The notes beneath the pieces were generated by a model. That model had not been told where the DNA came from. It did no database searches and saw only the letters and a program-made list of their open reading frames with translations. The translations under genes and the position numbers were made by a program. A stretch of DNA of 64,000 bases from an uncultured Acidobacteriota bacterium (GTDB taxonomy: Bacteria > Acidobacteriota > UBA6911 > RPQK01 > JAPXNP01), in NCBI GenBank assembly GCA_963777605.1, contig CAVZRV010000035.1, positions 64,001-128,000 on the forward strand, in the 5' to 3' direction. Shown here piece by piece: positions 6,557-43,013 of the stretch. Each line of letters begins with the position of its first letter. The stretch's first letter is position 1.

Positions 6557-6697
6557 TGTGTGAGACCCTGTGTGAGAGAATCTGGCCAAAACGTGGAAAA
6601 TCGTCCAAAATCGGCAAAACGGCGATTCCTCTAACTTCAGCAAGTTATTGAAAATGAGTAGGTTGTGAAGATCGTCAGGTTCTGCTTTGGGAGCAGG
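6557..6697 (+). repeat. att-like arm block ending in a tRNA-Pro(TGG) anticodon stem-loop
   Basis: TGTGTGA x2, phased AAAA tracts and an IHF-like AAGTTATTGAAA, closely matching 32207-32330; then CTGC-TTTGGGA-GCAG at 6682-6696. Confidence 0.65.
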
Positions 6698-6865
6698 TCA
6701 TCGCTGAACGCGCCCTTGCTTTCGCGGCCAGGCTCTGGGGTTGTATTTTTCTCGTTGTGCAGTCCAAGGATTTTTGCGCAAGTGAGGTGGGCCAGTTTGG
6801 GGAAGAGTGGAAGAGCGTCGCCCCAGCCGCGCGGCGGAGCTTCCGCTCGCCGCTATCCAGCCGAA

Positions 6866-7755
6866 TCAACGGTCGCGCTCGATTGCTGCGGGCCCGGCGC
6901 GGGAGTGGGTTCGTTGTCGGAAGGCGGCTGCGGCTTTTTTGACGGTGTGTCTTGCGTAATACCGAGGATCGTCTTGTCGGAGCGGAATTCGGCCATGGCG
7001 GTGATGATCTTTTCCTCGGGGACTCCTCGGGCCAGGGCTCGCATGGCGTAGGCCCAGTCTTTTTCGGATTGGGAGCGGTGGCCGTCGGGGAGTTGGCGTT
7101 CTCCGGAGATTGGGGAGAGCTGTTCGGGGGTGAAGCGAGGGAACTGGTCGGGGCGGTAGATTTCGTCGGAGAGTTTCTCGGCGGTGACCGGATGGGGCGG
7201 GTCGTATTTGTGGTTGAGGAAGCCGGGGATTCGGAGGACCCGGGAGGAGTCGGTTGCGGCGGGGTCGGCGCCGGTTTCCCGGACGAGGGCTCGCTGGATT
7301 CCTTCGGCCTGGTCTTGCTCGAAGCCTTCCGCCTTCCAGATGATCTGGTACTTTCCGGCCGAGCTCTGGACGACATAGTTCGGGGTCGGAATGTCGGTTC
7401 GTTCGAGGAGACGATTCAGCGCTTCGGGGCCTCCGTGGTCGAGATCGAGATAGATGTGGCGGATGGTGCCGATGTCCTCCTTGGTCCGGCCGGTTGCCTG
7501 GGGTCGGAGGGCATTCATGGAGAGATAGACTTCGTAACGGCGGGAGTTCATGAAGCGAAGCCAGCGCTGGAAGTCTTCGGCGGCGATTCGCTCGGCCGAG
7601 GCGATCCGCTGAACCACGCCGCCATGTCTTCGGTTGACGAGGACGAGCGCGACTCGGTCTTTGGGTTCGAAGTTGTCGCGGATATAGGCGGCGGCCGTTT
7701 CCGAGTCGGTGCTCTGGTCTTTCAAGGTGTCGGTTCTTGATGCTGGGTCAATCAT
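6866..7755 (-). CDS. RepB'-type (RSF1010-like AEP) DNA primase; probable frameshift near 6970
   Basis: YLDLDHGG, SSAGKYQIIW, D..RVLRIPGFLNHKY and SQSEKDWAYAMRALARG; the tail DPRYYARHTVKKA is in the shifted frame. Confidence 0.8.
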
Positions 7756-8719
7756 GGTCTGCTCCATTTCGGCGGTACAGGACTTGGAGTTCATACCGGT
7801 CCCGTCCCGGATCGTAGTGTTGGATTTCGAGGACCTCCGCGACCTGGCGCCTGCCCTTTCGTCGCTCGATGTGCAGAAGGAGATGGATCGAGTCGGCGAT
7901 GCTGCTTCGCACGGCCGTGTAGGGCAGTTCGACACCGCTTTGAAGGACACAGCTCGTAAAGCGAGCAACGGCTTGCTCGGCCGAGTTGGCGTGGATCGTG
8001 GAGAGCGTTCCGGAATGGCCGGTATTGAGCGCCTGGAGGAGATCGAAGGCTTCCCCGCCCCGCACTTCGCCGAGGATGATCCGATCGGGCCGGTGGCGAA
8101 GGGCCGCCCGCAAGAGATCCCGGATCGTGACGGCCGGCAGTCCCGGATGATCGCGACGGGCCTCGAGGCGCACCAGGTTGGCCTTATCGATCTGGATCTC
8201 GGCCGTATCCTCGATCAGAATCAATCGACACGATGCGGGGACGAAGGCCGTCAGTGCGTTGAGCAGCGTCGTCTTGCCGCTGGCCGTACCGCCACTGATC
8301 AGGATGTTCTTCTCCGATTCGATGGCCTTCTGCAGCGTATTGACGAGATCGGTGGTCAGCGTGCCGATCCGGATCAGCTCTTCGGCGGTAAAGCGCTTGT
8401 TGTGGAACTTCCGGATGGTCAAGGTGGTTCCGCCGACAGAACACGGAGGAAAGACCGCGGCGACCCGCGAGCCGTCCGGAAGCCGCGAGTCGAGGATCGG
8501 CTTTTCCTCGGAGATCTCGTCGTCAAGTGCCCGGGCGATGTTTCGGGCGGCAATCTGCAGGCTCTTCTCCGAGATCTCGACCCCACGAACCGGCTCCACC
8601 AGGCCGTGTCGTTCGATGAAGACGCGGGAAGGGGCATTGATCATGATTTCGCTGACTTCCGGGTCCCGGATGAGGTTTTCGATCGGTCGAAGAAAGGGCA
8701 GGATCACGTCGAAGCTCAT
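7748..8719 (-). CDS. virB11: VirB11/TrbB/CpaF family secretion ATPase
   Basis: Walker A GGTASGKTT, IEDTAE, LRHRPDRIILGEVRG and NTGHSGTLSTIHANS. Confidence 0.93.
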   Translation of the reverse strand: MSFDVILPFLRPIENLIRDPEVSEIMINAPSRVFIERHGLVEPVRGVEISEKSLQIAARNIARALDDEISEEKPILDSRLPDGSRVAAVFPPCSVGGTTLTIRKFHNKRFTAEELIRIGTLTTDLVNTLQKAIESEKNILISGGTASGKTTLLNALTAFVPASCRLILIEDTAEIQIDKANLVRLEARRDHPGLPAVTIRDLLRAALRHRPDRIILGEVRGGEAFDLLQALNTGHSGTLSTIHANSAEQAVARFTSCVLQSGVELPYTAVRSSIADSIHLLLHIERRKGRRQVAEVLEIQHYDPGRDRYELQVLYRRNGADHD

Positions 8720-10719
8720 CCGATTTCTCCTTGATCGAGCTGTTCGAAGTAGCTCAAGTTTCGATCCCGAAAGTAGGGCTTCAGGTAGCAGTAAGACGGC
8801 GGATGGGGATTGAACCCGTCGTAGGCCAGGACGATCGACTGGGCGTTTCGGAGTTCGGCGAAGATCTTGGGTTCGAAGACGGCGTCCCGGACGACGCTGT
8901 AACTCTTACTGGCGCTGACACTCGACTTGTGGGCCGTGGTGCGGCCGGTGAGCACACTGACCCGGGCGTCCTGGCCGTGCTCGGAGAGGTTGTAGTGAAG
9001 CCGCAGCTGTTCTTCTTTTCCGCACAGTTCGCTGGCCACCCGAGTGCTGAAGTCGTCGGAAAGGGCCAGGAAGATCTTGGTGCGAAAGGTCTGAAGCAGC
9101 GTCCGCCAGGATTCCCCGGGCAGGGTGGATCGAAGCGAACTGATGCTCTGCGTGGCGACGATCGGAATGCAGCGGGCCTGCCGGGAGAGGCTGAAAAACT
9201 TCTCGTCGCCGGTCGGATCGCTCTCACCGACAGTGGCAAAGGAATGGTACTCGTCGCAGAGGAACAACACTTCCCGCCAGTACCGGTCATCCTGGGATTC
9301 GATCCTGGGGATCCGGTCCAACATGGCCCGCTGGAAGTCCTGTTTCAAGAAAGTGCCGATCGCTCGGGCCAGGCCCGGATTGGCCGAGACGGGGAAGTTC
9401 AGAGCGCAGACCTTGCCCTGTTCGATCAGCTCGGAGAAAGGAGGCAGCGGCTTGCCGTATCGGCCGTCGCGGTTCATCTCCGGGTCGTAGCATTCCTTCG
9501 GAGGGCAGAACGTGCGTCTTGACGGCCGGGTTGTCGTCGAAAAGCGAAAGAAAGACGGAGATTCCTTCGACGATCGAGGTTCGGAGCTTGGGCTCGATCC
9601 GCATCCAGTCGTGAAAGAACCATCGCTCGACGGCTTCGAACTGAGCCTGCTTATCCTCCCTGGCTGCTTCGGACGCCCCGGCGGTCTCGGTCTGGATTTC
9701 ATACTGGATGCCGCGACGCTCGAGTTGATCGACGAGGTCTTCGGTCAAGACCGCCTTGAGCCGGTTCGTCTCCGGATCCATTTCGAAGGGGAGATCTTCC
9801 AGATGCTCGTGATCGAGAAACGCGTCCGGGTGGATCATCAGGGTGGTCGTCTCGCGAAAGCGGTGTCGTCCCTCTTCGATGCGCTTTTCGAGAAGATCGG
9901 GATTGATGGCGCATTCGTAGACGTCGAAGAGCGTGACGTAGTCGTAGACGACCTTGTGGAGCAGGATGATGAACTTGACGAGGTTCGTGTAGGCCTGCTG
10001 CCAGAAGGGCTCCTTGCCTTTGCCGAAGAGGTTGTTCAACAAGTGACGCGATCCCGTAAGCCAGGGCGTAGGCTTCGAGATCGTTGTGAAGCGGGTTGTA
10101 GCGATACTCGGAAGCGAGGCTCATTTCGACGTAGTCGTCGGCCCGGCCGTGTCGCGTCAGGATCTCGTTCACCTTGTGGCAGAAGTCCCCTTTGACTTCG
10201 AGTACCAGGCCGCTCGGCCGCCGATCGGGATCGCTTGCCCGGTAGGCCAGGATCTGCTCGGCGAAGGGAACCATGCAGCAGCTCGTCTTGCCCGTACCGG
10301 TCGCACCGAAAATGGCCAGGCCGGTAAAGAGTCCCCGACGGGGGATCGTCAGCCAACGGGGACGCTCGGCCGGTACGGGCTTTTTGGGATGGTGGACTTC
10401 GCCGAGGACGAGGTAGAGCTCGTCGCGTTCTGTGGGTTCGACATAGCGGGGCAGGCGTCCATGGAGGGTGCCGCTGTTTCTTCGGACGAGGAAGATGTAG
10501 GCCAGTGAAAGCGTGGCCGAGGTCACGATGTAGGGCGAAGTGAAGGAGAGCGCGACATAGATCAGTTTGAAGGCCAGAAAGAGTGCGCGGGCGTTCTGCG
10601 CCGATGAGTTCGAGGACCGGGTTGTCCTTGGGAAAGGGGAGCCAGTACTGGACCAGGACCGTCGTTGCGGCGGCAACGAGGAAGCTCACGAATGGTTTGT
10701 TTTCGTAGAGTCGTTTCAT
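8716..10719 (-). CDS. virD4: Type IV coupling protein (VirD4/TraG-like), split by at least 3 frameshifts
   Basis: N-terminal TM segments; Walker A GATGTGKT; LVLEVKGDF; YNPL; FWQQAY; Walker B FLCDEYH; VATQSISSL, spread over ORFs 10036-10719, 9699-10676, 9287-10042 and 8716-9702. Confidence 0.85.
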
Positions 10720-10822
10720 GGCCTGCAGAAGACACGTTCGAGGGTTGCCGGTTCATGAACTCGGTGTGAGTCGTGAACCTCAGGAGGCAAGCAGGGATGC
10801 TTGCCCTACGCTGTAGTGAGTT

Positions 10823-10923
10823 GTGGGGTGGGCGGGAGCGACCCTGGCCGAACCTTCGGGGGAGGAGTTAAGGTCTGGGCGCCTCAGGCGCCCAATGACC
10901 GGGGTCGCTCCCGCCCACCCCAC
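10823..10923. repeat. Perfect 22-bp inverted repeat with a nested palindrome (candidate oriT or ssi)
   Basis: GTGGGGTGGGCGGGAGCGACCC (10823-10844) and its reverse complement (10902-10923); inner TGGGCGCCT-C-AGGCGCCCA (10876-10894); intergenic upstream of virD4. Confidence 0.7.
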
Positions 10924-11080
10924 GACCCCGCGAAGCGCCCAAAGGGACGCGACGCGGTTTCGCAATGTATTGATAATTCTTGGCTTTGGCCTTATCGAGC
11001 GGGTGAAGCTGCGGTGAAATCTACGGTCGAAACCCTGATGCAGACAAGTCGTCGATCGTCTTGGCGGCGCAAGAAGTGAT

Positions 11081-12106
11081 TCAGCGCCTGTTAAAGCTGT
11101 CGAGAAAGTCATAGTTGTGCTCCAGGCGAGCAGGTTTGAAAGTCCACAGAAATCGGAAACGGTAAGCTCCGCGATCCTGGATCCTTTCGGTGACCGCACG
11201 ATCGCCATCCTCTTTCCAGAGTCGAAGAGGGATTGGGTGTCCGGGCTGTTGAAGAGTCGGCGAGCTCTCTTCAGACGGATCAATCTGTCCCGGCTCAGGG
11301 ATTGAAACTGTTTGGTTTCGTAGAGGTGCTCCAGACGGAAGTACTCGAGAAGGCCGGCAGCATAGGTCTCGTTTGCTCGCCTCGGAGTCGAGCAACGCGA
11401 CAAGGGATTTCACTCTGCGTCTTGCCGCCTGAAAGTGTCGTTCCGTGTCCGCGATGTAGAAGAGCCGAAGCGTGCCCAACTGCTGAACAGTCGGCTGTAC
11501 TGGTTGAGAAACGTGTCGAAGCCCGCCAGCGATCGAGCCCCCGAGTCGACGTAGCAGAAGGAGACCACAGGCGAAGAGTCTGCGTCGTCAGACGAGACAA
11601 AGAGGGGAAACTTATCGACGAAGTAGCGGATGGTTTCGTCATCCGATTGCTTCGAGGAGTAGAGCTTTCCTCGGTAGGAGATCCGGACGAGAGTTTCCTC
11701 GTGATTGGTGAAGTAATCGACCTTCTCGCGTTCGGTGGCCAGGTAGGTTCGCTCCGGATCAGTCAGCACAAAATCGAGGGCCATCAGTTTGGTCTTGATG
11801 GCGGAGGGAGCATCGCTGGCGGCGGTTGCGGTTGTTCGGATCGCCCAGAGCCTCGAAGAACGGACGGGACGAGAGGTGAAAGACCCCGGTGTTGTTCGGA
11901 AAGACCGTGGCGCGGCGAGTGGCGATTGGCCGCCGATCCTCCACGAGTTGGATCACGGTCGTACCGTTACGGCAACCCACGAACGGTCTGTACTGGCGGC
12001 GCACAAAGTAACCGCCATGAAGGGCTGCGAGTACGAGAAAGGCGGCTTCCCGTTCGTTGTACCCGAATTCCTGGAGTGCTTCGATCCGCTGTTGCTGGGT
12101 CATCAC
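11081..12106 (-). CDS. Conserved T4SS-associated hypothetical protein (wHTH-like N-terminus), at least 2 frameshifts
   Basis: MMTQQQRIEALQEFGYNEREAAFLVLAALHGGYFVRRQY / LDFVL...YLATEREKVDYF...YFVDKFP / LLEYFRLEHLYE; start overlaps the stop of the upstream gene. Confidence 0.6.
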
Positions 12107-13019
12107 CTGAGGATCTCCGCAGTGAGTTCCCGTTCCTCTTTGACGGTGGAACCGGAAGACCGGGAGGTGCCGGCGAAGTAGATCTTGAATCCGGCCTGCC
12201 GCTTTTGAGCGAGTTGGCCGGGACGGTAGTGCTCGGTTGCCAGTTCCAGATCCCGATGGTCCAGTTCACCGTCCCGCGTCTCGTATTCGATCCGAAGATC
12301 CGGGAAGGCGACCCGGCCTCGAACGATCGGCAGATCGTGGCGGCTGGCGACCTCCTTCTGCTTTTCTCGGAGTGCCGCGTTCGTCTCCGCGTTGTCGCAG
12401 TTTCGAAAGCGGGCGAAAGACTTTCTCTTTAAGCTCGTAGTCCAAGACGACCCGGCGGATCTTTCCTCCCTCGAGTCGGATCTTTTCGGCCTCGAGCTGA
12501 TACATGCGGTAGATGGCGGCGTCATGGCGCGCTTCAGCCGGTTTGACGAAGCCGGAGTAAAGCTTCTGATTTCCGAGGCGATCCCGGGTCTCGGGGTGAC
12601 GGTTCAGGAAGCGTGCGCCTTGACGGGTCAGGACAACGACGTGGGTGCGATTTCCTGTCGGCAAGACAAGCCGAATCCGGCGGGCGAGCCGCTGACGGAT
12701 GAGGTTTCGAAGATCCTGTTCGGCCCGGGATCGGTTTCCCTCGTAGCGAGAAGTCGACCAGGTCCCGGACGTCGATCATTCGAAACCGCCCGATTTCCGT
12801 CATCGTCTCGAGTTCGGATTCCCGCAACTCGAAGCTTCGATTCCGCGACCAGCGGCGCTCGCGAGCGTTTGTCCGCGGATCGTCTTGAACCGGTCGTTCA
12901 GTTGAGGGCGTGCGCGGAAGGTCTTTACTGTCGACTGAGCCGCCGGCACGCGACAGGGATCGGTGGTTGGGCTCGTCGCGAAGATCCGGGTGAGGCTCGC
13001 GCTCCAGTCGTCCCCTCAT
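12103..13019 (-). CDS. Replic_Relax-like wHTH + PD-(D/E)xK protein, candidate relaxase; frameshifted
   Basis: LRESELETMTEIGRFR / VVVLTRQG...ARHDAAIY / FPDLRIEYET...DLELATEHY; located between the Mpf genes and virD4. Confidence 0.62.
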
Positions 13020-13312
13020 GGTTCCTCCCGCAGACGCTCGCTGAGTTCCTCGGAGATGCTCTGCCCAGATCTCAACTGTTTCTCGAGGTGAGCCAGCTTC
13101 TCTCCGGTGTTCTTCAGAAAGAGCCTTCGGCTGAGGACAAAGACTCCGGCGAGCAGGTTGAAAAAGAACCAGGCGGAGACACCCAGAATCGTCCATCCGT
13201 AGTCGGAGACTAAGAGGTGCCGGTAGGGGATCAGGAAGCGGAGTTCCTGCATCAGGTAGAAGAGTGCCGCCAGAAAGAGAATGCTCGTCACAAAGAAAGC
13301 GTTTTTGATCAT
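13016..13312 (-). CDS. Small two-TM membrane protein of the tra operon
   Basis: 98 aa with two hydrophobic segments; tightly packed in the operon. Confidence 0.7.
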   Translation of the reverse strand: MIKNAFFVTSILFLAALFYLMQELRFLIPYRHLLVSDYGWTILGVSAWFFFNLLAGVFVLSRRLFLKNTGEKLAHLEKQLRSGQSISEELSERLREEP

Positions 13313-13316
13313 CGCG

Positions 13317-14006
13317 TTACTGAAAGGCCTGGTCTTCCCGGAAGTAGGTGATGGTCAGACCCAGCGGATTGATCGGTACCAGGGTGTTGGGGACCTGGTC
13401 TTTGACGACGAAGACGAAGTGGGCGACCCAGAGGTCGCGCCGGATCTCGAGATGATCCTGGGCCGTGTAGTAGATCTTTTCGAAGTCGACCGATGCCTTG
13501 TAGGGCGGCGAGCGAAGGTCCTCGATCGAGACGTTACGGACGTTGATCTCGATCTCCTCACCGTTTCCCGCCAGAAACTCTTCGATCGTCTGGTTCTTCC
13601 GGTTGGCTTCGATCGTCGCATCGGCCAGGCGCCCGTCGAGAAAGTAGAGCGAGGAGGAGTAGTTCTCGCGAACCGTGGCCCTAACCCGCCCGTAGTGGCG
13701 GGTGACGAACTGGATCAGGAAGTACTTGATCTCGGGGGCCTGCGGTTTGTATCGGAGGGCATCGTATTTGACGGCCTCGGCCCGCCCCACGTCGTCGATG
13801 CGGATCACGAGCGGCTTGAGGTCGGCGAAGGCCCGATAGGTCTTGAAATTCAGGAGGATCAACCCGACCAGCACCACCGAGAGGCTCAGCAAGGCGATCT
13901 TCAAGTAGGTGTTCGTCACCAGAGCCGAGCCGAACTGCTCCATGTAGAGCCGCTTGGCCTGGCTGAACTCTTTCGGGGGCGGCGGTAACAGGGGTGTCTT
14001 ATCCAT
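13317..14006 (-). CDS. virB8: VirB8/TrbF family protein
   Basis: Single TM, then PLVIRIDDVGRA; C-terminal NPLGLTITYF. Confidence 0.88.
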   Translation of the reverse strand: MDKTPLLPPPPKEFSQAKRLYMEQFGSALVTNTYLKIALLSLSVVLVGLILLNFKTYRAFADLKPLVIRIDDVGRAEAVKYDALRYKPQAPEIKYFLIQFVTRHYGRVRATVRENYSSSLYFLDGRLADATIEANRKNQTIEEFLAGNGEEIEINVRNVSIEDLRSPPYKASVDFEKIYYTAQDHLEIRRDLWVAHFVFVVKDQVPNTLVPINPLGLTITYFREDQAFQ

Positions 14007-14015
14007 AATCTTCGC

Positions 14016-14843
14016 TTAGCTGAACTGGCGCGGCAGAGCGGTTTCGCCCGCCCGGCCGGTAAAGATGCCGTTGACGAGACTCGGGACTTTCAGGAGGCCA
14101 TAGATAAACGCCACAAGCAGAAAGAGAAACGGGACGAACAGGATGGCCAGTCGCGCTCCGTCAAAGGGTGGCGGATGGGCGTCGAGAAAGCGGATCAAGA
14201 GGTTTCCGAAGATGAAGACGAAGGCGTGCGCGATCACCTGGTAGAAGGCGTACTGAATGAAGGCCCGAAACCATCCCCAAAAGAGCCATTCGAAATGGGG
14301 AACGATGAAAAACGGAATGAAGATCGGACCCACCAGGACGATGACGCCCAGCGCCGCCCAGCCGAACGAGATGACTCCCAATACGGCCACCTGGGCGAGA
14401 ATGACGGCCAGCATCACCACGACGTATCGGATGATCGAGAGGACGTCCAGAAAGTAGGGCCACTCCATCGTGTAGACGACTTCGTAAAGGCGCAGCTGCA
14501 CTTCGCTTGCCGTCGCCAGCTCGATTCGATTGGACAGGAAGATCCCCTGCTGAATGATGACGTCCTTAAAGCTCAGGCCGAGTGCCGGCAGGGGCCGATC
14601 GTAATAGGTGATCATGGCCTGACAGAACGCGATCGTCAGAATCAGGCTGGCGAGTCTCGACATTCGGAAACCGCCCTCGTGATCCGAAGCGGAGAGAGCG
14701 GCGCGGATTCCAAACCACGAGATGAGGATGATCGCGAAACCGGTAAAGAGATTCCGACCCATGATCAGAAACAGGTTCGTGTGGCGGGTCAGCAAATCGA
14801 TGATGGCTTGCTGAATCGCGGTGAAGTAGTTCAGGTCGGGCAT
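14016..14843 (-). CDS. virB6: VirB6/TrbL family polytopic membrane protein
   Basis: Multiple TMs; VGPIFIPF...WLFWGWFRAFIQY; position between virB5 and virB8. Confidence 0.85.
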   Translation of the reverse strand: MPDLNYFTAIQQAIIDLLTRHTNLFLIMGRNLFTGFAIILISWFGIRAALSASDHEGGFRMSRLASLILTIAFCQAMITYYDRPLPALGLSFKDVIIQQGIFLSNRIELATASEVQLRLYEVVYTMEWPYFLDVLSIIRYVVVMLAVILAQVAVLGVISFGWAALGVIVLVGPIFIPFFIVPHFEWLFWGWFRAFIQYAFYQVIAHAFVFIFGNLLIRFLDAHPPPFDGARLAILFVPFLFLLVAFIYGLLKVPSLVNGIFTGRAGETALPRQFS

Positions 14844-14860
14844 TTCGCCAATCCCTCTCC

Positions 14861-15833: not shown

Positions 15834-15846
15834 GGTTCCTCCTCCC

Positions 15847-32462: not shown

Positions 32463-32569
32463 GAAAACTCCTTTCAAGACGTCTAAAATAATTCTTCGGA
32501 TCGAACCAAAAGAACTTGTCGGACATGACAACGGTTACGTTGATGATTTTCGGCAGATCAACCAGACGG

Positions 32570-33929: not shown

Positions 33930-34133
33930 AACACCCGTCCAGTAGCGACCGTGTCCCGAGGAGATGTTTTCGTGGTCCCCGACAGGTGGATTCTGACTCC
34001 AGCTCCATTTCCACACCAGGGAAATGTCATCCTCGAGCAGGTGGACGACCGTTGGATGTTCAGTCTCCATGGCGGTTTCCCGAGACCGGCGCTATACTCG
34101 TTGAGACGTTAGGCATGTCTTGAGGGCAGAGCA

Positions 34134-34430
34134 ATGAACCAGGACGAGGTCATCGCCAGACTGAAACAACATCGCGATCGGTTGCGCCCGTACTCCGTCC
34201 AGGCGCTCTACCTCTTCGGCTCGGTCGCTCGGAACGAAGCTTCCGCAGCCAGCGATGTCGACCTGCTGGTCGAGTTTGAAGCGGGTGCTCACATCGGACT
34301 GTTCGACTTTGTCCGACTGCGCCGCCTTCTGGCAGAGATTCTCGGATGCGAAGTCGACCTGGTGACCCGCGATGCTCTCCATCCGGCGATGAAAGACAGC
34401 ATTCTCGAGGAGGCCATCCGTGCCGCGTAG
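34134..34430 (+). CDS. mntA: MNT minimal nucleotidyltransferase antitoxin
   Basis: LFGSVARNEASAASDVDLLVEF, 98 aa, overlapping the HEPN gene. Confidence 0.9.
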   Translation: MNQDEVIARLKQHRDRLRPYSVQALYLFGSVARNEASAASDVDLLVEFEAGAHIGLFDFVRLRRLLAEILGCEVDLVTRDALHPAMKDSILEEAIRAA

Positions 34431-34764
34431 GTCCTGGCGCTTGTGGGCCGAGGACATCCTTCAGGCGCTCGAGACGATTCACGACTATACCCGGGACATG
34501 GATCGCGACGACTTCATCCGCGACCGCAGAACGATCGATGCCGTGTTGAGAAACCTGATCGTCGTCGGGGAAGCCTCTCGAAAGATGCCGGCTGAAGTAC
34601 AACAAGCCAATCCTCAGATTCCCTGGCAGGAGATGTCGGACATGCGCAACGTGGTCGTCCATGAGTACTTCGGCGTCAGTGTTCCGATCATCTGGGACAC
34701 CATCGAACGGGATCTGCCTCCTCTCATTCCTGCGTTTCGCCGCCTCCTGGACGAGTCCGAGTGA
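34420..34764 (+). CDS. hepT: HEPN (DUF86) RNase toxin
   Basis: DAVLRNLIVVGEA, IPW and RNVVVHEY (Rx4H). Confidence 0.9.
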   Translation: MPRRSWRLWAEDILQALETIHDYTRDMDRDDFIRDRRTIDAVLRNLIVVGEASRKMPAEVQQANPQIPWQEMSDMRNVVVHEYFGVSVPIIWDTIERDLPPLIPAFRRLLDESE

Positions 34765-35040
34765 TTGGCAACCTTGCACAGGCGCCCATGACTCTCATAA
34801 GTCCTTGGCCTACCCCCGTTCTTTGTACCAGGGCCTATGAGAGTCTGTGGTTCATGGTGACGGATTCCGGGGTTTCTGGCCCTATCCTGTCGTTCCCCCT
34901 TCGCCTCTCAACAGAAACGCCGAATCTGTCTCATTGATGGAGCAGCGCCGAAGCCGAATGCAACTGCCGACCTTGCCTGCCTGACCGATTGACCGGACGG
35001 GTGAGAGCCTGTACATTCGCTCATTCCCCCAGGGATCAAC

Positions 35041-37086
35041 ATGACCGGATTTGGCGCACGCAGATGGGGTCCAATCATAATAGCGGCATTTCTCAGCTTC
35101 GCTGCACCACATGCCGCTGATACCCTCCATCGCAGCGCGGCCCCCCAAAAGGTACAAAAACCTCCTGTAATCGACGGGCGCCTGGATGATGATGCCTGGA
35201 AAGAGGCCCCTGTACTCAGTGACTTCATCCAGTTTGAGCCGGACAAGGGAGCACCGGCCACTGTCCGGACTGAGGTGCGCGTTCTTTATGACGACACCCA
35301 TATCTATTTCGGATTCAAATGCTGGGATCCGGATCCCGACAAGATCGTACTGGGCACCGCGCGTGACGGTCTGAGAATGGGCACGGACAGTGTGGATGTC
35401 CTGGTGGACACATTCCACGACATGCGTACTGGTTACTACTTCCGCACGAATCCTCTCGGTGTCCAGCATGACGGACTCGTTTCGGACAACGGCCGGGTAG
35501 CGGACACGACCTGGGACGGAGTCTGGCAGTCGGAAGGCGCCTGGATACCGGAAGGATGGAGTGCGGAAATGGCGATTCCCCTGTCAACGGTCAAGTACCG
35601 GGAAGGCGAAGATCAGACCTGGGGCTTCCAGACCAGCCGCTACCTGCCTCGCAACCTTGAGAAGAGTTTCTGGACAGGGCCGCTTGAAGACTATAGAAAG
35701 ATGGATGGAAACGGGACCTTGACGGATCTCGATCTGTTGGCTCCTTCCCGGAGGCTGGAGCTGATCCCCCACCTACTCACCCAATTTGAGAAGGAAGGTA
35801 AAACACAGGTCGAAACAGGTCTGGACGCCCGCTATGATTTCACTCCCTCACTTTCGGGTCACCTAACCGTCAACCCGGACTTTGCCACGGTGGAAGCCGA
35901 CGACGAACAGGTGAACCTGACCCGTTTCGAGTTGGGCCTGCCGGAAAAGCGTCAATTCTTTATGGAGGGCAGTGCCGCATTCTCCCAGCGTATCCAGCTT
36001 TTCTATTCTCGGCGCATTTCGGATATCTTCGGCGGAGCCAAGCTATACGGCAAACTCGGGAACAACGAGATTTCCACGATAATCGTCCAGAGCAAGGAGG
36101 ATGACTACGGCCTGGATTCAGCCAATTACAGCGTCTTTCGGATCAAGCGCGACGTGTTGAGCAGCTCTTCGATCGGATTCTTGACAGCCAACCGCGTGGT
36201 CAATGGACGCGCACAGGGAACGGCGGGGCTGGACGCCGCACTCTTCTTCTCGGAAACTTTCAATCTGACCGGGCAATTCGCCGTCGGGTATGGAGAGGCC
36301 GGTAAGACGGACACCGCCTTCTTTATCCGACCCAGTCATGACACCTCGACTTTCCACATCCATCTCAGATTCACTCACCTGGGCGAGTACTTTGGCGACA
36401 ACGTCAACGCGGTGGGATACATCCAGGACGATAACCGAAACGAGCTCGACTCCGCGATATCCAAGACATTCTGGACCAACGGCTCTTTCCTCGACAAGAT
36501 CGACTACACGTCGAACTACAATGTTTACTGGGGCATGGACAAGGCACTTCGCTCCTGGGATGCGTGGAATGCCCTGACACTCGACCTCAGGAACAGATTC
36601 AGCTTCGATGTTCGCCATGAAGAGGAATTCAAACTGTTCGAAAAGGAATTCCGCAATCGTCAGACAACCTTCGGATCCGGATACAACACCCGCGAGTGGC
36701 AGTCCGCCGCAGTAAGCTGGACATTCGGGCGCAATTTCGATTCGGACTTCACCTTGATCGGCGCTGAACTGCGACGCAAACTGTCGGAGAATCTTTCCCT
36801 CGAGTACGGCCTCTCAAGGTTGACTCTCGACCCTGATCCCGAACTCGACAGTACGTGGATTCACTCGTTTCGTGCCACCCAGTATTTCCAAAAAGATCTT
36901 TACTTCAAGTTCTTTTACCAGACCAACTCCGCAATCGACAAACGGAATCTCCAGGCTGTATTCGCCTGGCGTTTTCAGCCTCCTTTCGGCCTGCTTCAAC
37001 TGGCCTATCAAAAGGGATCCTCCAGATTTGGAGAGCGTGGTGACCAGGGCGATATCCTCTTCATCAAGCTGGCTCTTGTGTTATGA
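35041..37086 (+). CDS. CBM9-like + DUF5916 outer-membrane protein
   Basis: PVIDGRLDDDAW, WSAEMAIP and TVNPDFATVEAD..QVNLTRFELGLPEKRQFFMEG. Confidence 0.87.
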   Translation: MTGFGARRWGPIIIAAFLSFAAPHAADTLHRSAAPQKVQKPPVIDGRLDDDAWKEAPVLSDFIQFEPDKGAPATVRTEVRVLYDDTHIYFGFKCWDPDPDKIVLGTARDGLRMGTDSVDVLVDTFHDMRTGYYFRTNPLGVQHDGLVSDNGRVADTTWDGVWQSEGAWIPEGWSAEMAIPLSTVKYREGEDQTWGFQTSRYLPRNLEKSFWTGPLEDYRKMDGNGTLTDLDLLAPSRRLELIPHLLTQFEKEGKTQVETGLDARYDFTPSLSGHLTVNPDFATVEADDEQVNLTRFELGLPEKRQFFMEGSAAFSQRIQLFYSRRISDIFGGAKLYGKLGNNEISTIIVQSKEDDYGLDSANYSVFRIKRDVLSSSSIGFLTANRVVNGRAQGTAGLDAALFFSETFNLTGQFAVGYGEAGKTDTAFFIRPSHDTSTFHIHLRFTHLGEYFGDNVNAVGYIQDDNRNELDSAISKTFWTNGSFLDKIDYTSNYNVYWGMDKALRSWDAWNALTLDLRNRFSFDVRHEEEFKLFEKEFRNRQTTFGSGYNTREWQSAAVSWTFGRNFDSDFTLIGAELRRKLSENLSLEYGLSRLTLDPDPELDSTWIHSFRATQYFQKDLYFKFFYQTNSAIDKRNLQAVFAWRFQPPFGLLQLAYQKGSSRFGERGDQGDILFIKLALVL

Positions 37087-37593
37087 GGAGCTGCATCCGG
37101 GACCTCGTTCCAGAACCGTTAAATGCAGTGTCCCCGCACAGACGGTTTGCCAAAACATATACCCGGCTTGATCGAAATCCGGGCCCACAGATCTCCGCCT
37201 TTCATCTGCGAGCTTCGTCAGCGAAGAACAGCAGACAACCGTGGAACTGGGGCAGCAAATCAAGAAGTGAAGCTGAGCTCCGGTTGCTACTTTGCATCGT
37301 CCGTGAAATACGAGAAATTAACCAAGAACTGCTGCAGTACTGGCAGGGTGAAAGAGACTGAGTCAACATGCTCACTTATCAAATTCGGCCCCGTGTCTTT
37401 TCTACTCATGGAGATGATTCGCTACGCTTTCCTGCAGAGGGTGAAGTAAAGTTCCGGTTCTCCCCTCTTCAGCCGTTCGGTATGGAGGCCGGGAATGGCC
37501 ATACGGCGGTGCGTTCGGTTCCAGAGACGGCCCTGTTCGATGCCAACACCGGTGCTCACACGATTAATAGTGGAACGGCTCCAGGAACACGCC

Positions 37594-38301
37594 ATGCGTT
37601 ACAAGACAAACTTGGACCCATTTGCACGTAGAGAGGAAGGCTCCGAGACGAGGCAGAACAACGGAGGCGGAGAGCGGTCTTTCTTTATTTCTCGCTTGCT
37701 CACACTGCAGTACCTGGCCGCTGTCACGCTTTGCCTGGACGTGATCAGTCCAGACCAGATTTCGATCATTCCGAAGCTACTCATGGTGGGAATGCTGGTC
37801 GGTCTCGCCACGATTCTCCTCCTCTTGATGATCAAACCGGTCTTGCAAGTCGGGCCCCGGGGATTCAAATATCTCTGGCTCGAACCGTTTGAATGGGGTG
37901 ACATTGAGGAGATTGTCTACTTCAACGTCAGAGGTCTCGCCTCCATGAAAGTCACTCTCGATCGCGCGGTATTGAGCCGGACTCCATCCAGAATTGTCAG
38001 GATGATCTTCAAGGCCGGTGGGCGACACCTGTGGTTCAGAGGATGGCGGGGTATCGATCTGGAACAACTCACCGACGCGATTGGCGGATTTTCGAGATCA
38101 AAGAGGTCTTTTAGGGTGGAGTCCTTGCTTGGAGTATCGATGGTCGTAGGGATCGGGTTCACCCCCTTGGAAAAAGGCCTCATGTTTCTGTACGTGTCCG
38201 TTTTTCTCGTTTGGGCTGTGTCCGAATATCGCAAGCGATGGAAGAGACTGGCTCGGCGACGGCGCAAGCTCGAAAAGCTTCGAACTGACCAGCGTAACTA
38301 A
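37594..38301 (+). CDS. Hypothetical membrane protein
   Basis: Long ORF with 3-4 hydrophobic segments; start uncertain. Confidence 0.55.
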   Translation: MRYKTNLDPFARREEGSETRQNNGGGERSFFISRLLTLQYLAAVTLCLDVISPDQISIIPKLLMVGMLVGLATILLLLMIKPVLQVGPRGFKYLWLEPFEWGDIEEIVYFNVRGLASMKVTLDRAVLSRTPSRIVRMIFKAGGRHLWFRGWRGIDLEQLTDAIGGFSRSKRSFRVESLLGVSMVVGIGFTPLEKGLMFLYVSVFLVWAVSEYRKRWKRLARRRRKLEKLRTDQRN

Positions 38302-38408
38302 TGTTGCGCCTTCGGGAGGTAGAGTAGACAATGAACCTAAGAATCGGATTGGGTAACACCGCCTCGGTTAGTCGACACTGATCGGGTGAACAAAGGAGGC
38401 GCTCAACC

Positions 38409-39380
38409 ATGAATAGGGCCACCTGCCCGCTTTTGTACTTGCTACTCTTCTCAGGCCTCGCTTTGGGCGGTCAGGAGTACACAATAATTACCTGCAAAAT
38501 GGAGGAATTCCACCCGGGATTTTTTCGGATCACGGAAGACGGAATCAGTCGAACTCCACACTGTCGATGCGACTCGACTGACTTTCGTGCAGGTAAGCGA
38601 GATGGATTTCACATCCGAGTCGAACACTGGTCCAGTTCTGCACATCAACTCGTCTTCTATTTAGACGTGCCCGAGCCAGTTCGTATCCATCGGTTCGAAG
38701 TAAACTCTTCCTGGTCAAACTTCCGACACCTTGGGATGCACTCTTCGTTGCCGGTCCAAGTCGATGCCCAGAGAACATTTCGCTTGACCCCGACCAACTC
38801 TTGGGACTTCACCGCCGGAAATAGTTTCAACGTCCAGATTGAAGTCTCCCTACTTTCTGAAGCACCGGAGCGCCGCCACCTCATCGAGTTGTCCGGCGTT
38901 CTCGAGGAACGAAACGGATCGAAACCATTTAAGACGATTGAACTTAAGCCCGAGAAGACCGACAGACAGGTAGCCCCGGAAGAGTTTTCACGTGCGATTC
39001 GTGGAGGCCCATGTTCTGGCGTGCTCTTCTATGTCGCGAGCCGCGTACTGGATCGGGAGACCCTTATCCTTCGCCTGGAGGTAGGTCCTCCGATCGAGAT
39101 CCGTGGCATCAAGGTTCTGGGACCTTACAGCAACCCTGACGGGTTTCGCTCGCTTGTTTCCGTGTTTGGAACGAGAGTGGAGGAGGCGCTCCCGGCAAAG
39201 ACCGATCGACTCAACGATGTCTACTACCGTCTGAATCCCGAACATCGAATGCAGTCCTCAGGATCACTGGAGAACCTGGAGATCGAATTCGAAATTGAGA
39301 TCGGCGGATGCCCATCGACGCACGGAGAGGTGAACGAGGGAACCGAAACTCTTCGGTATCGAGCCCGCCCGATGAAATAG
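38409..39380 (+). CDS. Secreted hypothetical protein
   Basis: AGGAGG RBS, signal peptide, 323 aa. Confidence 0.7.
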   Translation: MNRATCPLLYLLLFSGLALGGQEYTIITCKMEEFHPGFFRITEDGISRTPHCRCDSTDFRAGKRDGFHIRVEHWSSSAHQLVFYLDVPEPVRIHRFEVNSSWSNFRHLGMHSSLPVQVDAQRTFRLTPTNSWDFTAGNSFNVQIEVSLLSEAPERRHLIELSGVLEERNGSKPFKTIELKPEKTDRQVAPEEFSRAIRGGPCSGVLFYVASRVLDRETLILRLEVGPPIEIRGIKVLGPYSNPDGFRSLVSVFGTRVEEALPAKTDRLNDVYYRLNPEHRMQSSGSLENLEIEFEIEIGGCPSTHGEVNEGTETLRYRARPMK

Positions 39381-39422
39381 AGCAATCCATTCAGCAAAGG
39401 CGATGCCTCAGTCCGGATCTCT

Positions 39423-39986
39423 CTATTGCTCCTTGTCTCTAGCGACAAGTCGCATAATTCCCTCCACGATCAGACTGTGCTCAACTTGCGACTCACCACA
39501 GCGGAATGTAATCGCAAAATCGAACATGGCGCCAACCTTGAATTCGGAGGAGAGGGAAAAGTACATCTGTTCGCTCTTCTGAACGTGGTGTGGATACGCT
39601 GGACCGAAGACCCCTTCCCCGTCGACAGTGGCGAAAGCCGGACTTGGGCGATACCTCTGCGGTAGACGGACACCGCTGATCTCAGCTGGGTGCTCCGTAT
39701 CGAAGCGGAGATTGATCTGGCCCTCTTTGGCGGGCAGTCCGGACAGGGAAACTCGGCCGCAGGCGCCGACCGTCATCGTGGCAGTCTTTCCGTCGTCGGA
39801 AATTTTCGTCCTGACTCCAGAGATCGAAGCATTGCCGAACTCTGGTTCAATCGACCTGATGACATGGAAATCCTCGTTGGGAACCCCCTGATTCGGCTGA
39901 CCCAAAACCGGAGCCAGAAGTCCCACAAAAGCCAAAGCAAGGACCAGAACGAACGTGACCATCGGCCGCACCCCAGCTCCTACCAC
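39423..39986 (-). CDS. Secreted hypothetical protein
   Basis: Signal peptide; weak by-eye similarity to 38409-39380. Confidence 0.65.
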   Translation of the reverse strand: MVGAGVRPMVTFVLVLALAFVGLLAPVLGQPNQGVPNEDFHVIRSIEPEFGNASISGVRTKISDDGKTATMTVGACGRVSLSGLPAKEGQINLRFDTEHPAEISGVRLPQRYRPSPAFATVDGEGVFGPAYPHHVQKSEQMYFSLSSEFKVGAMFDFAITFRCGESQVEHSLIVEGIMRLVARDKEQ

Positions 39987-39996
39987 CTTGCTTCAG

Positions 39997-40596
39997 TTAC
40001 TTCGGATGTTCTAAGCGGTTAGTCCAAGGCGGTGTGAACACATAATCGCAATCGCTTTCGAGAGCCCCTTGGAAACGCTCCAGGCTCTGATACAGGGCCC
40101 AACGGACACCCCTCCAGGTCGAGGCTGTCTGAACGTAGTCGTCGTGTGAGAAGAACGTGGCCATACTCGAATTGAAGGCAAGCGGCATATAACGCTCAAC
40201 ACTCGGATCACGCTTGAGAATGACTTTGTCCCAATACTCGACGAAATACTTCACCTCGTACCAATAGGGCTCATTGTTTTTCGGCGTGACATTTGGCGAG
40301 ACCTCCCGAGTCCTGCTCGTAATCGAAATAGTAAGCTGCGGCAGCCACATCTCTCCTGCCGAGTCCGGATCGGATTCGACGACCGGCACCCCTAACTCGG
40401 CAAGCCTCTCGAGGCAGTAGTCTCGGGCGACCTCGGAACTGATCTGAGTCTCCAGCAGGTCAATTCTCACTTCGAGACGGATTCATTGATCATCTCTAAA
40501 CAGCTCGGAAAGTGCGCCCTGGCCGAAAGCGGAAGATAGAAGAGCAGAGCAAGGAACGAGTCCAAGACAGACCAGCACAATTTGACGGACTGTCAT
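39997..40596 (-). CDS. Secreted hypothetical protein with a frameshift after the signal peptide
   Basis: MTVRQIVLVCLGLVPCSALLSSAFG from 40596 is out of frame with the 39997-40470 ORF. Confidence 0.5.
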
Positions 40597-40754
40597 CGCA
40601 ATTTTAGATGTTACGCTAGGGACGATTGAGCGGCAACCATCTTTCGGAGCCGTTGGCGCCACAAGAGCGCGAGCTGTAATGACATCCCGTACAGATCTGA
40701 TTGAGCCCTTGGTGCCGTGCCTCCATCCGTTCTCCAGAATCTCGCGGCAACATC

Positions 40755-40894
40755 TGGTAACTTCTGGTAGGCACCGATCTGTCTTTGCTGGATCGTAACT
40801 GTTGATTTGGTTAGGGTTTGGTAGGAATTGGGAGAGCGTTTCCGCCTAGCTGCAAAACCTTTATTCAGCGGTTCGAATCCGCTCGCCGCCTCCA
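40755..40894 (+). repeat. att-like arm block plus 3' half of tRNA-Cys(GCA) (40850-40894)
   Basis: CTGCAAAACCTTTATTCAGCGGTTCGAATCCGCTCGCCGCCTCCA preceded by TGGTAA/TGGTAG repeats; no 5' half. Confidence 0.85.
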
Positions 40895-41002
40895 ACTTCT
40901 TGTCCACGGCAGCTATTGGGCGTCATTCATCATCTGGGGAAATGAGTTGCCCTCCCTGGGAATTCACAACGAGGGAAAACACCCCGCCCAGTCAACGATT
41001 CG

Positions 41003-41317
41003 TCACGCGACTTGCAGTGGCTTGATGCGTTCGACATCTTTCTCGATGGACTGCCCCGCGTCCCAGAGATCGACCGACCGCTGCGCGTTGAGCCAGAATT
41101 CGGGTGTATTGCCGAACAATCGGGCCAGGCGAAGCGCCATTTCCGGGCTCAAGGCCCGCCGCTCCCTCAGCAGCTCATTGACCGTCTGACGGGACACACC
41201 GATCGCCCGTGCAAGCGCGGATGCCGTCAGGTCGAAATCGGGGAGAAAGTCTTCCCTCAACATCTCGCCCGGATGGGTCGGTCGAACGGTCCTCTTTCCT
41301 GTGTTGTTAAAGCTCAT
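41003..41317 (-). CDS. higA: HigA family antitoxin
   Basis: PTHPGEMLREDFL...LARAIGVSRQTVNEL...EMALRLARLFGNTPEFWLNAQ. Confidence 0.93.
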   Translation of the reverse strand: MSFNNTGKRTVRPTHPGEMLREDFLPDFDLTASALARAIGVSRQTVNELLRERRALSPEMALRLARLFGNTPEFWLNAQRSVDLWDAGQSIEKDVERIKPLQVA

Positions 41318-41330
41318 ATCGAACCGGCTC

Positions 41331-41612
41331 CTAGTGGTAGTCCGTGATCTCGACATCGTAGGCATCGCCATCGACGAATCGAAAACAAATTCTCCACTGG
41401 TCGTTGACTGCAATCGCATACTGGCCGCGCCGTTCACGCTCAAGGGCATGCAAACGATTGCCCGGCGGGACTCTCAGATCGTCCAAACAGGTCGCAAGGT
41501 CCACATACTCCAGCTTTCGGACAGCCCTCCTGCTTACGTCGGGCGGAATACGCCTCGATTTGCCAGTGACATACAGTGCCTGCGTTTGTCGATCGGCAAA
41601 CGTCTTGATCAC
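41331..41612 (-). CDS. higB: HigB (RelE-family) toxin
   Basis: MIKTFAD...DLRVPPGNRLHAL...GQYAIAVNDQWRICFRF...EITDYH. Confidence 0.93.
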   Translation of the reverse strand: MIKTFADRQTQALYVTGKSRRIPPDVSRRAVRKLEYVDLATCLDDLRVPPGNRLHALERERRGQYAIAVNDQWRICFRFVDGDAYDVEITDYH

Positions 41613-41619
41613 CGGCCAA

Positions 41620-41648
41620 ACTGTAACGCGTCACGTGACGCAAGTCAA
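41620..41648 (-). promoter_or_regulatory. Sigma70-type higBA promoter with a palindromic operator
   Basis: Minus strand TTGACT-17bp-TACAGT; perfect palindrome GCGTCACGTGACGC (41628-41641) in the spacer. Confidence 0.75.
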
Positions 41649-42026
41649 CCGCAATCCTTGCAGCCAGCACACTACCGTTGTGTTCTTCCACCGGCATTGA
41701 TTAATCGAGCACCTTCCAAAACTCCTCGATGGTGCAAGATTCACGATTCTGGCCGAAGAGGCTAGCTGGCCCAACCCAAAAGGGCCAAAGCGAAACCGAG
41801 ACAAGGACCCAAATCGCACGAGTGGCTGCTTCCAACCTTCAATGGCGTCTCATCGCAGCTTCAAATTCTGAGTCACATCAGACGAATAGACAACCAAATC
41901 CAAAAGGCCAAGAAATCATTGACCGGGAAACCGTCCAGTTCGGCCTCGATTTGTGCGGCCTGATGATATCTGGAAGACAGTCGGGTAGGGGGGATACAAT
42001 TCGACTCTGCTGGTGGCACAAATCGC

Positions 42027-42809
42027 GTGAGTATCAGAATACTGGCTTTGGCATTGTTTCTGGCGGGCATTGGAGTACCTGCAAGAGCCTCCTCCTGTGT
42101 AACCGTCGGTGAGGCTGAGATCCAGCGCCTGTGTAATGGTCCCCTTCTGAACCGATCGATCCCTTGCGAACGTCCCTCAGGACTCAGAGCCGACCTCGAC
42201 GGTGACGGGAGCTGGAGACGGTCATTGCATCGGCCAGCAATGACCTGGAAACCGGCTTCCTGACGGTTGTCTCGGAATCGGATACCGTGGTCTTCCAGCT
42301 TCCCTTCGGCGGTGCGAGTTATGGGTCTGACCCGTACAACCTTCGGTGCGTGAACCGTGGCAAGTCGATGCCACTCGGAATCGTGGCCCCGTTTGGCGTG
42401 CTCGGGAGTACCTTTGCAGGGACCTACAACGTCCTGCTGAGCTGGTCCAGGAGGATATTATGTCTACACAAGGATTTTCACGCCGGGTGGCGACGTCACG
42501 ACAGAAGACCTAAATGGCGACGGTATCGACGAGATCCTGGTCCAGAGTTACGTGAACGACTATCCACCGATGACCGTGTTCTGGTGGGACGTATACGAAT
42601 GGACGGATTCAGCGCCTCAACTCGCAAATGCTGCCTTCCCGGAGTTTTTCAAGAGAAAGATCGAAGAGTATTACCAACCCAACGTCGACAAGGCACAGTC
42701 TGTCCAGCCAGAATCCAAACTAGACAAACGCTTATGGAAGGAGTTCCTGGACGTCAATCGCAAGATGATTTCCCAGGCACAAGGGATCATCGAAGAAGCG
42801 GAGCAATAA
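42027..42809 (+). pseudogene. Secreted hypothetical protein in at least 3 frameshifted pieces
   Basis: Signal peptide and ADLDGDG; later EDLNGDGIDEILVQSYVNDYPPMTVFWWDVYEW in another frame. Confidence 0.55.
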
Positions 42810-42887
42810 TCCAACGCAAAAAGGCCACCTTGAATCTGCCTCCCTCCGGCTCACCGCCACTCTCACGGGTGAAGAATTGGTCATGAA

Positions 42888-43013
42888 TGGTAGGTGCCGA
42901 TCTGTCTCGGCTGGATCGTAACTGGCGATTTGGTTAAGGTTTGGCAGGAATTGGGAGAGCGTTTCCGTCTAGCTGCAAAACCTTTATTCAGCGGTTCGAA
43001 TCCGCTCGCCGCC
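42888..43013 (+). repeat. Second direct copy of the tRNA-Cys att block (CCA end lost)
   Basis: Co-linear with 40765-40890 at an offset of 2123 bp. Confidence 0.88.

Follow-up and report, generated by a model that had tools for sequence, protein, structure and literature searches.

Displaced tRNA halves of mixed type stacked in one orientation within a putative tRNA-Asp-type island of an uncultured Acidobacteriota bacterium

In the accretion known from streptococci, segments that are bounded by attachment (att) sites and lack recombination and transfer genes, termed cis-mobilizable elements (CIMEs) in ICEberg 2.0 and in a review of IMEs, lie in tandem with integrative and conjugative elements (ICEs) or integrative and mobilizable elements (IMEs), their att sites being of the type used by the helper ICE. 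Related integrases, as Williams is said to have reported in 2002, keep to one sublocation, the anticodon loop, while differing in the tRNA that they target. We here analyze a stretch of 64 000 nucleotides (nt) from an uncultured Acidobacteriota bacterium, hereafter called the window, in which seven remnants of tRNA genes (cores J1 to J7) follow one another in the same orientation between positions 6682 and 43013. In Islander (PMC4383910), a genomic island consists of a tDNA, a tDNA fragment and an integrase, with the displaced tRNA 3' fragment, oriented as the gene, marking the island end; it counts only four tandems of three or more among 3919 islands and rejects candidates without an integrase, so that arrays like the present one would be filtered out. 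Tandem islands at a tRNA or transfer-messenger RNA (tmRNA) gene are exemplified by the ssrA islands of Dehalococcoides (PMC3146451), and tRNA fragments left by island integration are well known (PMC9897764). The tripartite ICEs of Mesorhizobium (PMC5882170) have regions that lie between unlike att sites and depend on several site-specific recombinases.

The region studied is probably (we put the probability at about 0.6) an eroded pile-up, nested or tandem, of integrative elements targeting anticodon loops, inside a giant island of the tRNA-Asp type. An earlier examination of the bare sequence, here called the original prediction, had already taken the sites for att remnants of such elements and the region for an accretion in which none of them carries an integrase, and both views held, with the cores being 3' halves of tRNAs accompanied by conserved arms.

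tRNA cores and integrases

The window comprises positions 64001-128000 of contig C35 (332,961 bp) in the source genome G000, a 6.73-Mb bin of 53 contigs that is 96.7% complete with 5.68% contamination; positions given are those of the window unless a contig is named. Intact tRNAs were called by ARAGORN, and tRNA fragments were located with BLAST, the tRNAs of G000 serving as queries against all of its contigs. ARAGORN reported 52 tRNAs and one tmRNA in G000, with no tRNA gene in the window or anywhere on C35. Pieces of tRNA outside intact genes occupied 33 loci in G000, and nearly all of them ran from tRNA position 27-34 to the 3' end; tRNA halves went unreported by Rfam even at a permissive threshold.

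Five of the seven sites in the window were found by this comparison with intact tRNAs to be clean 3' halves, all on the + strand. J2 (23314-23358, +) is a 45-nt half of tRNA-Arg-TCT covering tRNA positions 33-77 with 44/45 nt identical (97.8%), and J5 (32344-32388, +) matches the same tRNA at 45/45 nt (100%). Two halves derive from tRNA-Cys-GCA, namely J6 (40850-40894, +), identical at 45/45 nt (100%), and J7 (42973-43013, +), which is identical over 41 nt (100%) with the last 4 nt differing. The fifth, J4 (30561-30605, +), had been listed as a tRNA-Val-TAC fragment, which turned out to be wrong since this core combines two tRNAs. Over its first 17 nt it is identical to tRNA-Val-TAC, starting at C32, and over its last 37 nt to the 3' end of a tRNA-Asp that has CGGCCCC as acceptor and G as discriminator (G73); the two parts of this hybrid overlap in CCGGAGGTC, so that the Val/Asp junction falls within 9 nt of identity. 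With the tRNAs of G000 as queries, 30569-30605 matched positions 41-77 of tRNA-Asp-GTC (97%) and not the tRNA-Val of G000; the Asp form found in J4 is present at 100% in many relatives, including G014 (a 10-contig genome of the same family as G000). J4 is not the half of any working tRNA, and it is the product expected when a site of Val type crosses over with one of Asp type.

The remaining two sites are damaged. J1 (6682-6697, +) consists of only the 16-nt anticodon stem-loop of tRNA-Pro-TGG; the Pro-TGG anticodon arm that had been predicted here is thus present, while the T arm and acceptor are missing. J3 (25894-25927, +), already described as degenerate, is by sequence reading and repeat comparison an Arg-TCT core with an internal deletion, in which ~11 nt are missing between the 10 nt that remain on the loop side and the ~20 nt that remain on the 3' side; no recognizable left arm was found at J3. 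Of the seven co-oriented sites in the original prediction, the + strand location was right for all, as were the spacings between them (about 16.6, 2.6, 4.7, 1.8, 8.5 and 2.1 kb), whereas J1 and J3 do not count as clean halves. A further co-oriented fragment, a complete Asp half, lies beyond the window at C35:141677-141723 (+). All fragments on C35 are on the + strand, 6/6 of those detected by BLAST and 8/8 when the two degenerate sites are included.

With regards to integrases, the genome gave 27 matches to the tyrosine integrase family PF00589, none of which was on C35, and searches of C35 by tblastn and phmmer with 26 integrases of G000 gave only spurious matches. Serine recombinases (PF00239) were absent from G000. 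The claim that the region has neither an intact tRNA nor an integrase was hence borne out for the whole of C35. A candidate integrase remnant at 42984-43322 (-), found with tblastn at E=0.01, was rejected, as BLASTP traced the match (GGGERIRTAE) to the translated tRNA overlap of an integrase open reading frame (ORF) on C9, and Pfam and PHROG searches of 42984-43322 (-) gave nothing. About nine of the 27 PF00589 matches adjoin a tRNA or a tRNA fragment. Among them, the integrases that were to be sought elsewhere in the genome could be located beside intact tRNA-Arg-TCT (C30:2431-3786) and intact tRNA-Cys (C9:8098-8937, only 280 amino acids (aa)), whereby the minimum requirement for action in trans is present. 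A further integrase lies beside tRNA-Lys-TTT (C6:56023-57117). Two other integrases, beside tRNA-Asp-GTC (C8:18134-19108) and tRNA-Arg-ACG (C30:380542-381912), are 86% identical over 233 aa, and are thus close paralogues located at different tRNAs.

Recombination arms common to several tRNA types

Four types of arm, A to D, were found to the left of the cores, and the arm-like flanks noted earlier are real, as seen from repeat pairs at 86-87% identity. Arm A is a conserved P-type recombination arm that precedes J1 (6545-6681, +) and J5 (32205-32343, +), with 6585-6669 being 87% identical to 32243-32327, and it occurs in 25 of the 76 genomes of the order that made up the comparison set for arms. 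Its conserved blocks are split by small indels and have no codon periodicity, which argues that the arm is non-coding. A small gene had been considered, because a 70-aa ORF (32119-32331, -) matches all arm copies, but was rejected as variability is equal at the three codon positions. Twenty-four distinct copies were read, with tRNA types assigned by eye from the loops. At a fixed distance, arm A was followed by 3' halves of Arg-TCT (three copies), Lys-TTT (one), Lys-CTT (one), Ala-TGC (three), Pro-GGG-like (four), Phe-GAA-like (one) and Thr-TGT-like (one) tRNAs, or by reverse-complemented 5' halves of Arg-TCT (four) and Lys-TTT (one). In the last 5/24 instances there was a truncated core like that of J1, or no tRNA sequence, so that the truncated Pro site of the window, spaced normally behind its bona fide conserved arm A, has counterparts in other genomes.

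Two further arrangements of arm A were seen in relatives. At G014:C6:458151-460438, two tRNA-Arg-TCT 5' halves (positions 1-41) lie upstream of the intact gene, each followed by a reversed arm A, and the arm A family therefore integrates in the opposite direction too. At G034:C10:150352-150618, two arm A copies have match starts 157 nt apart, with 143 nt between their conserved end motifs, and each is followed by the same short core-like sequence, amounting to an 'empty' array unit.

The conjugative element described below ends in arm B (23190-23313, +), which abuts the J2 core. Arm B was found at 83-89% identity in C6, G006, G001 and G014:C7, giving five instances in 4/76 genomes, and it abuts Arg-TCT in the window, Val-TAC in C6 and G014:C7, Arg-ACG in G006 and Arg-TCG in G001. 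Arm C (30426-30560, +), with GGTAA-type repeats, has relatives at 75-79% in G013 and G009; the core behind it is a true Asp core in G013, Arg-ACG in G009 and the hybrid J4 in the window. Arm D, of Cys type, is present in two copies (40740-40849, + and 42863-42972, +; 40740-40893 is 86% identical to 42863-43016), which are 90-94% identical to the arms at C9:46-140 and C8:1367-1467, and it also precedes the Cys fragments at C9:1 and C8:1326. The evidence for arm families that serve many tRNA loops, together with that for the one hybrid core, is the most interesting by-product of the analysis.

To the right of the cores, a P'-type arm (R1) with TGTGCC arm-type motifs at 23359-23521 (+) clusters with the flank to the right of intact tRNA-Leu-TAA on C29. 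A second R1 copy lies at 25928-26040 (+), 23339-23427 being 87% identical to 25908-25996, and R1 motifs are also found to the right of Leu cores in G021, a single-contig closed genome of another family. The P' arms to the right of J2 and J3 are thus shared with the attL of tRNA-Leu-TAA, which makes J2 and J3 inter-element junctions. A P' arm is likewise shared by two Arg-TCT 3' halves 4.6 kb apart at G004:C1:2362832-2367800; each of these halves has an insertion of ~35 nt inside its T loop, and no tRNA gene was present within the 18 kb examined.

Displaced halves are arranged in similar ways elsewhere. Behind the intact tRNA-Leu-TAA of C29, four Leu halves are spread over 30 kb with no integrase among them; one Ala and two Lys pieces on C53 share a single orientation, and C8 has a Cys half that is oriented like tRNA-Asp and located 17.8 kb downstream of it. 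G021 has three exact Ala halves behind tRNA-Ala, at ~15, 2.7 and 0.8 kb and with no integrase match, and this array contains a co-oriented Leu-TAA half. The canonical tRNA-Leu-TAA of G021 is at 3.549 Mb, and six more exact 45-nt Leu halves were found, four of them at least 660 kb away.

The surrounding island and the modules between the cores

The original prediction had regarded the array as a dedicated platform, whereas it appears to be a stretch inside a giant tRNA-Asp-type island. In G014, an integrase adjoins tRNA-Asp and an Asp 3' half lies 206 kb further on, with no other tRNA piece between, and C35:141316-141746 (arm plus Asp half) is 90-95% identical to the end of that island. BLAST matches shared with the G014 island, including the conjugative module, amounted to 21,656 nt within C35:1-141723 as compared to 965 nt within C35:141724-332961. 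Moreover, C35:1-13975 is paralogous (87-93%) to C8:1-12128, a segment ~7 kb away from the only tRNA-Asp of G000 and its integrase, and the upstream side of this tRNA-Asp is conserved beside tRNA-Asp in relatives. To judge from these alignments, the window probably lies inside a tRNA-Asp-family island of roughly 140-150 kb. Window positions 23-43 kb had no counterpart in the G014 island, and therefore look like later additions.

The original prediction had also assumed mixed small cargo cassettes throughout, too small to be autonomous. This holds with regards to size for the modules of 1.8-2.6 kb but not for the largest module of 16.6 kb, in which Pfam searches revealed a decayed conjugative plasmid-like element (6853-22774, -). 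All of its genes are on the minus strand and encode a RepB-type primase (6853-7968), VirB11 (7748-8719), a split TraG/VirD4-type coupling protein (8716-9702 and 9699-10676), VirB8 (13317-14006), VirB6 (14016-14843), a split VirB10 (15847-16275 and 16040-17188), VirB9 (17193-18515), a split VirB3/B4 (18059-19408 and 19336-20826) and an RPA-type replication initiator (21170-22774). The initiator gene is preceded upstream by six to seven iterons of 22 bp (22876-23067), which are conserved also in the copies on C6 and in G014. For the coupling protein, a 91% identical paralogue on C31 as well as G014 have one undivided ORF of 666 aa, and its splitting in the window, like that of VirB10 and VirB3/4, reflects either real decay or assembly error. 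When assessed as an ICE, the interval 6717-23313 has type IV secretion genes and a coupling protein but no integrase, and no Pfam relaxase was found among the ORFs scanned, which did not include every ORF. Trios of adjacent tyrosine recombinase genes were seen in G000 at C31:183-3406 and C31:15204-18429, and in the G014 island at C4:896617-899941 (-) and C4:907619-910843 (+), with one trio being inserted into a copy of the primase region of the conjugative module.

The shorter modules carry mixed genes. Between J2 and J3, Pfam identified a 654-aa serine hydrolase of the PF00144 family with a DUF3471 domain (23661-25625, -), for which a pattern scan found no relatives in the comparison genome contigs. 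It is one of three PF00144-family serine hydrolase genes within 25 kb, the others being at 907-2454, with 94-95% copies on C31 and C17, and at 2974-4485. Thereafter follow an ORF of 362 aa that belongs to no known family (27080-28168, -) and a gene for a subtilase, with MopE motifs (28702-30366, +), and between J4 and J5 three small ORFs of no known family (30678-32010, -). The module between J5 and J6 holds an AbiEii fragment (32404-32712, -), an Ig-like protein (32817-33929, +), a HepT RNase (34420-34764, +) and a DUF5916/CBM9 protein (35041-37086, +) with a 94% DNA copy on C11. It begins with a right flank of arm A type (a weak motif, 7/12 aligned) and ends in a Cys-type arm. The last module (40895-42972) is a patchwork of part C11-like and part C9-like DNA and encodes an Xre-type helix-turn-helix (HTH) protein (41003-41449, -), of which an 89% DNA copy lies right of the Cys fragment on C11. 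Other module ORFs had no Pfam or PHROG match.

To the right of J7, the flank 43014-43522 is 92% identical to C8:1320-816, and this homology is broken by a 384-nt repeat (43523-43906) with 96-98% copies on C31, C16 and C30. A 2.4-kb segment encoding a TetR regulator and an alpha/beta hydrolase (43904-46324) is 96% duplicated at C35:32548-34974 and partly duplicated also at C35:53319-54538. Further to the right, Rfam gave a match to a group II intron domain (RF02012, 67 bits) at 46494-46630 (+), near which 46429-46842 is 97% identical to C31:3590-4003, and twelve overlapping copies of a repeat with a 9-bp period (KEFKE-like) are found at 56543-56701 inside the ORF 55505-57004.

Origin of the array and relation to known systems

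An accretion of this kind most likely arose by the successive integration of elements belonging to several arm families. Each half with a left arm would be an attR-type or inter-element junction, composed of a P arm, the core and a P' arm or other DNA, with crossover by a tyrosine integrase in or near the anticodon loop. The 16.6-kb interval would be what is left of a small conjugative, iteron-replicating plasmid-like element and the other intervals short remnants with accessory genes, whereas the integrases and any intact tRNA copy would have been lost by deletion. Signs of decay are the internal deletion of J3 and the splitting of the coupling protein, VirB10 and VirB3/4 genes in the window, the coupling protein being intact in paralogues.

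The mixed targets may have two sources. Integrase and arm families could be flexible in their choice of tRNA loop and could accept, besides, tRNA halves that are displaced and without function or non-tRNA secondary sites that the island already contains; insertion into an existing core would preserve orientation and thereby give co-orientation of unlike types. A mismatched event destroys a working tRNA but costs nothing in a displaced half, so that such events should accumulate in existing arrays. Integrases not tied to one tRNA would best explain the mixed co-oriented types, because the same arms occur with many cores, because the hybrid Val/Asp core could be the leftover of a crossover between unlike sites and because some arms are joined to a bare loop followed by non-tRNA DNA. 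Paralogous island copies may in addition have exchanged segments by homologous recombination. Indeed, the 92% copy of J7 and its flank on C8, the C11/C9 patchwork at 40895-42972 and the unlike ends of 32389-40849 imply that deletion and homologous exchange must also have acted. An island-borne cluster of tRNA genes acting as landing pad is not favoured, as no 5' halves are found upstream of the cores, an element arm precedes each core and the G014 island has no internal tRNA.

Several observations weigh against a pile-up of flexible elements inside one large island. The reciprocal hybrid, with an Asp loop and a Val 3' half, was searched for and not found, and since the module 32389-40849 has unlike ends, off-target integration alone is insufficient and deletion or homologous recombination is needed. 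Shared arms could mean fast retargeting of specific integrases in place of flexibility of a single enzyme. The split transfer genes may be sequencing errors of a metagenome-assembled genome. The flank to the right of the Asp half on C35 (C35:141724 onward) gave no tblastx match to the G014 tRNA-Asp flank, so that continuity with the tRNA-Asp locus on C8 is deduced from paralogy, and with 5.68% contamination of the bin, C8 and C35 could derive from two strains.

Contamination of that order in a bin of 53 contigs could also suggest an assembly artefact, the contig being a chimera of strains or loci joined via repeated cores and arms, and many contigs indeed end in or near att fragments (C9:1, C8:1326, C11:1911, C12:276, C18:1695 and C53) while paralogous copies of 87-93% identity exist. 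Unlike cores, however, have no common sequence for mis-joining, and exact junction repeats are ~50 nt or less, with cores of 41-45 nt and the longest other exact match being 49 nt, a rough bound from a test that undercounts by dropping high-scoring segment pairs extending over a mismatch. Orphan halves and integrase-less arrays in closed, single-contig relatives further argue against a pure artefact, which we regard as highly improbable. The paralogy could also point to a pure rearrangement mosaic, in which single-tRNA islands (at tRNA-Arg, -Cys, -Val and -Asp) were merged by homologous recombination among paralogous segments or repeats without any off-target site-specific events. The window is 75-98% paralogous to parts of C31, C6, C11, C8, C9, C16 and C30; C8:1-12128 corresponds to C35:1-13975, 40895-42972 is composite and orphan fragments are dispersed in closed G021, all as such merging would give. 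It does not predict the strict co-orientation (8/8 on C35 and all of the mixed sets of C53, C8 and G021), the 9-nt identity at the junction of the hybrid core is too short for RecA-type recombination, and truncated cores positioned exactly behind conserved arms go unexplained. Homologous merging as the sole cause is hence unlikely.

What the original prediction had proposed was an integron-like accretion platform, whose non-autonomous att-bounded cassettes would be excised and inserted in trans by tRNA-targeting integrases located elsewhere in the genome. Such integrases exist, adjoining intact tRNA-Arg-TCT and tRNA-Cys in G000, although that at tRNA-Cys is no longer than 280 aa and several others are truncated. 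There are more att cores than integrases (33 loci with fragments compared to 27 PF00589 matches), all three arrays examined (C35, C29 Leu and G021 Ala) are without an integrase, most cores are exact copies of the host tRNA in G000 as well as in G021, and very short spacings are found, of 0.8 kb in G021 and of 143-157 nt between arm A copies in G034. No cassette was found between the same cores in two arrays or genomes, however, and homologues of the cargo in relatives had no att cores within 1.5 kb, in a set of comparison genomes that includes none of the same genus. A sediment metagenome run contained 0.17 of the sampled words and gave, over 23200-43100, short contigs of a relative at 90-99% identity, which cover 23422-25895 and cores; in this one run, which contains only a relative, neither circular or deletion junctions nor joints between like cores were seen, the only irregularity being a 55-nt skip at 23465-23521, and it speaks neither for nor against circles or the assembly. 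Furthermore, J1 and J3 are damaged and the module 23359-25893 lacks a left arm at J3, no integrase-adjacent primary site or common promoter is present, and two modules are flanked by different tRNA types, for which reason a single integrase could not excise them. Of the proposal, the integrases elsewhere in the genome thus stand, while evidence of cassette movement and the hallmarks of integrons are absent, and we find a platform working in trans quite unlikely. Equally doubtful is its wider form, that conserved-arm anticodon-loop integrases of Aminicenantes-type bacteria would use displaced halves as cost-free landing pads, with integrase-less mixed-target arrays being serviced in trans in a functionally integron-like capture of genes.

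Programs that search for islands expect a single tRNA, a single fragment and a single integrase, and many att-bounded segments here and in relatives, in a phylum that has been little studied, break all three assumptions; the programs would miss such segments or misplace their boundaries. Should the arm families tolerate different tRNA loops, this would explain changes of island target, mixed arrays and orphan tRNA halves, and they would be a source of integrases with relaxed, structure-guided target choice. If they do not, the locus would simply document, in good preservation, how islands decay and are reshuffled within a giant island.

Compared with known systems, the window shares with integrons an array of short gene-bearing modules between recombination sites, with the recombinase located outside the modules. 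It has no IntI, attI or Pc promoter, with no tyrosine recombinase being found on C35, and in place of attC-type palindromes, for which no attC model was run, the sites are of attP/attR type with long arms of 110-140 nt and tRNA halves. Tripartite ICEs have three integrases and three directionality factors and are reassembled for transfer, whereas here cognate integrases and directionality factors were found nowhere on C35 and all sites are direct. Closer are the CIMEs, which likewise are att-bounded segments without recombination or transfer genes, in tandem with other elements. At the sequence level, two att sites of one type enclose 40895-42972 (Cys/Cys) and also 23359-25893 (Arg/Arg, with one site damaged), and Pfam and PHROG searches found no recombination or conjugation genes in either; unlike in CIMEs, the att types of the window are mixed, several sites are damaged and there is no adjacent helper. 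With regards to integrase subfamilies defined by sublocation, the difference lies in one arm, 75-90% identical among copies, that occurs with at least nine tRNA cores, in both orientations, and with non-tRNA DNA, and in the presence of a hybrid core in the window. A thin literature search found no description of integrase-less arrays of tRNA halves of mixed type. The closest likeness is to islands and tandem arrays at tRNA genes, which have the same co-oriented displaced 3' fragment, anticodon-loop crossover and stacking. By the Islander definition, a displaced co-oriented tDNA end is present in the window, while an intact tDNA and a tyrosine integrase are not, and up to four or five tRNA types are interleaved and nested in another island. 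The locus represents a known process, in which islands accrete and decay, in a messier form with mixed targets and probably within a giant island.

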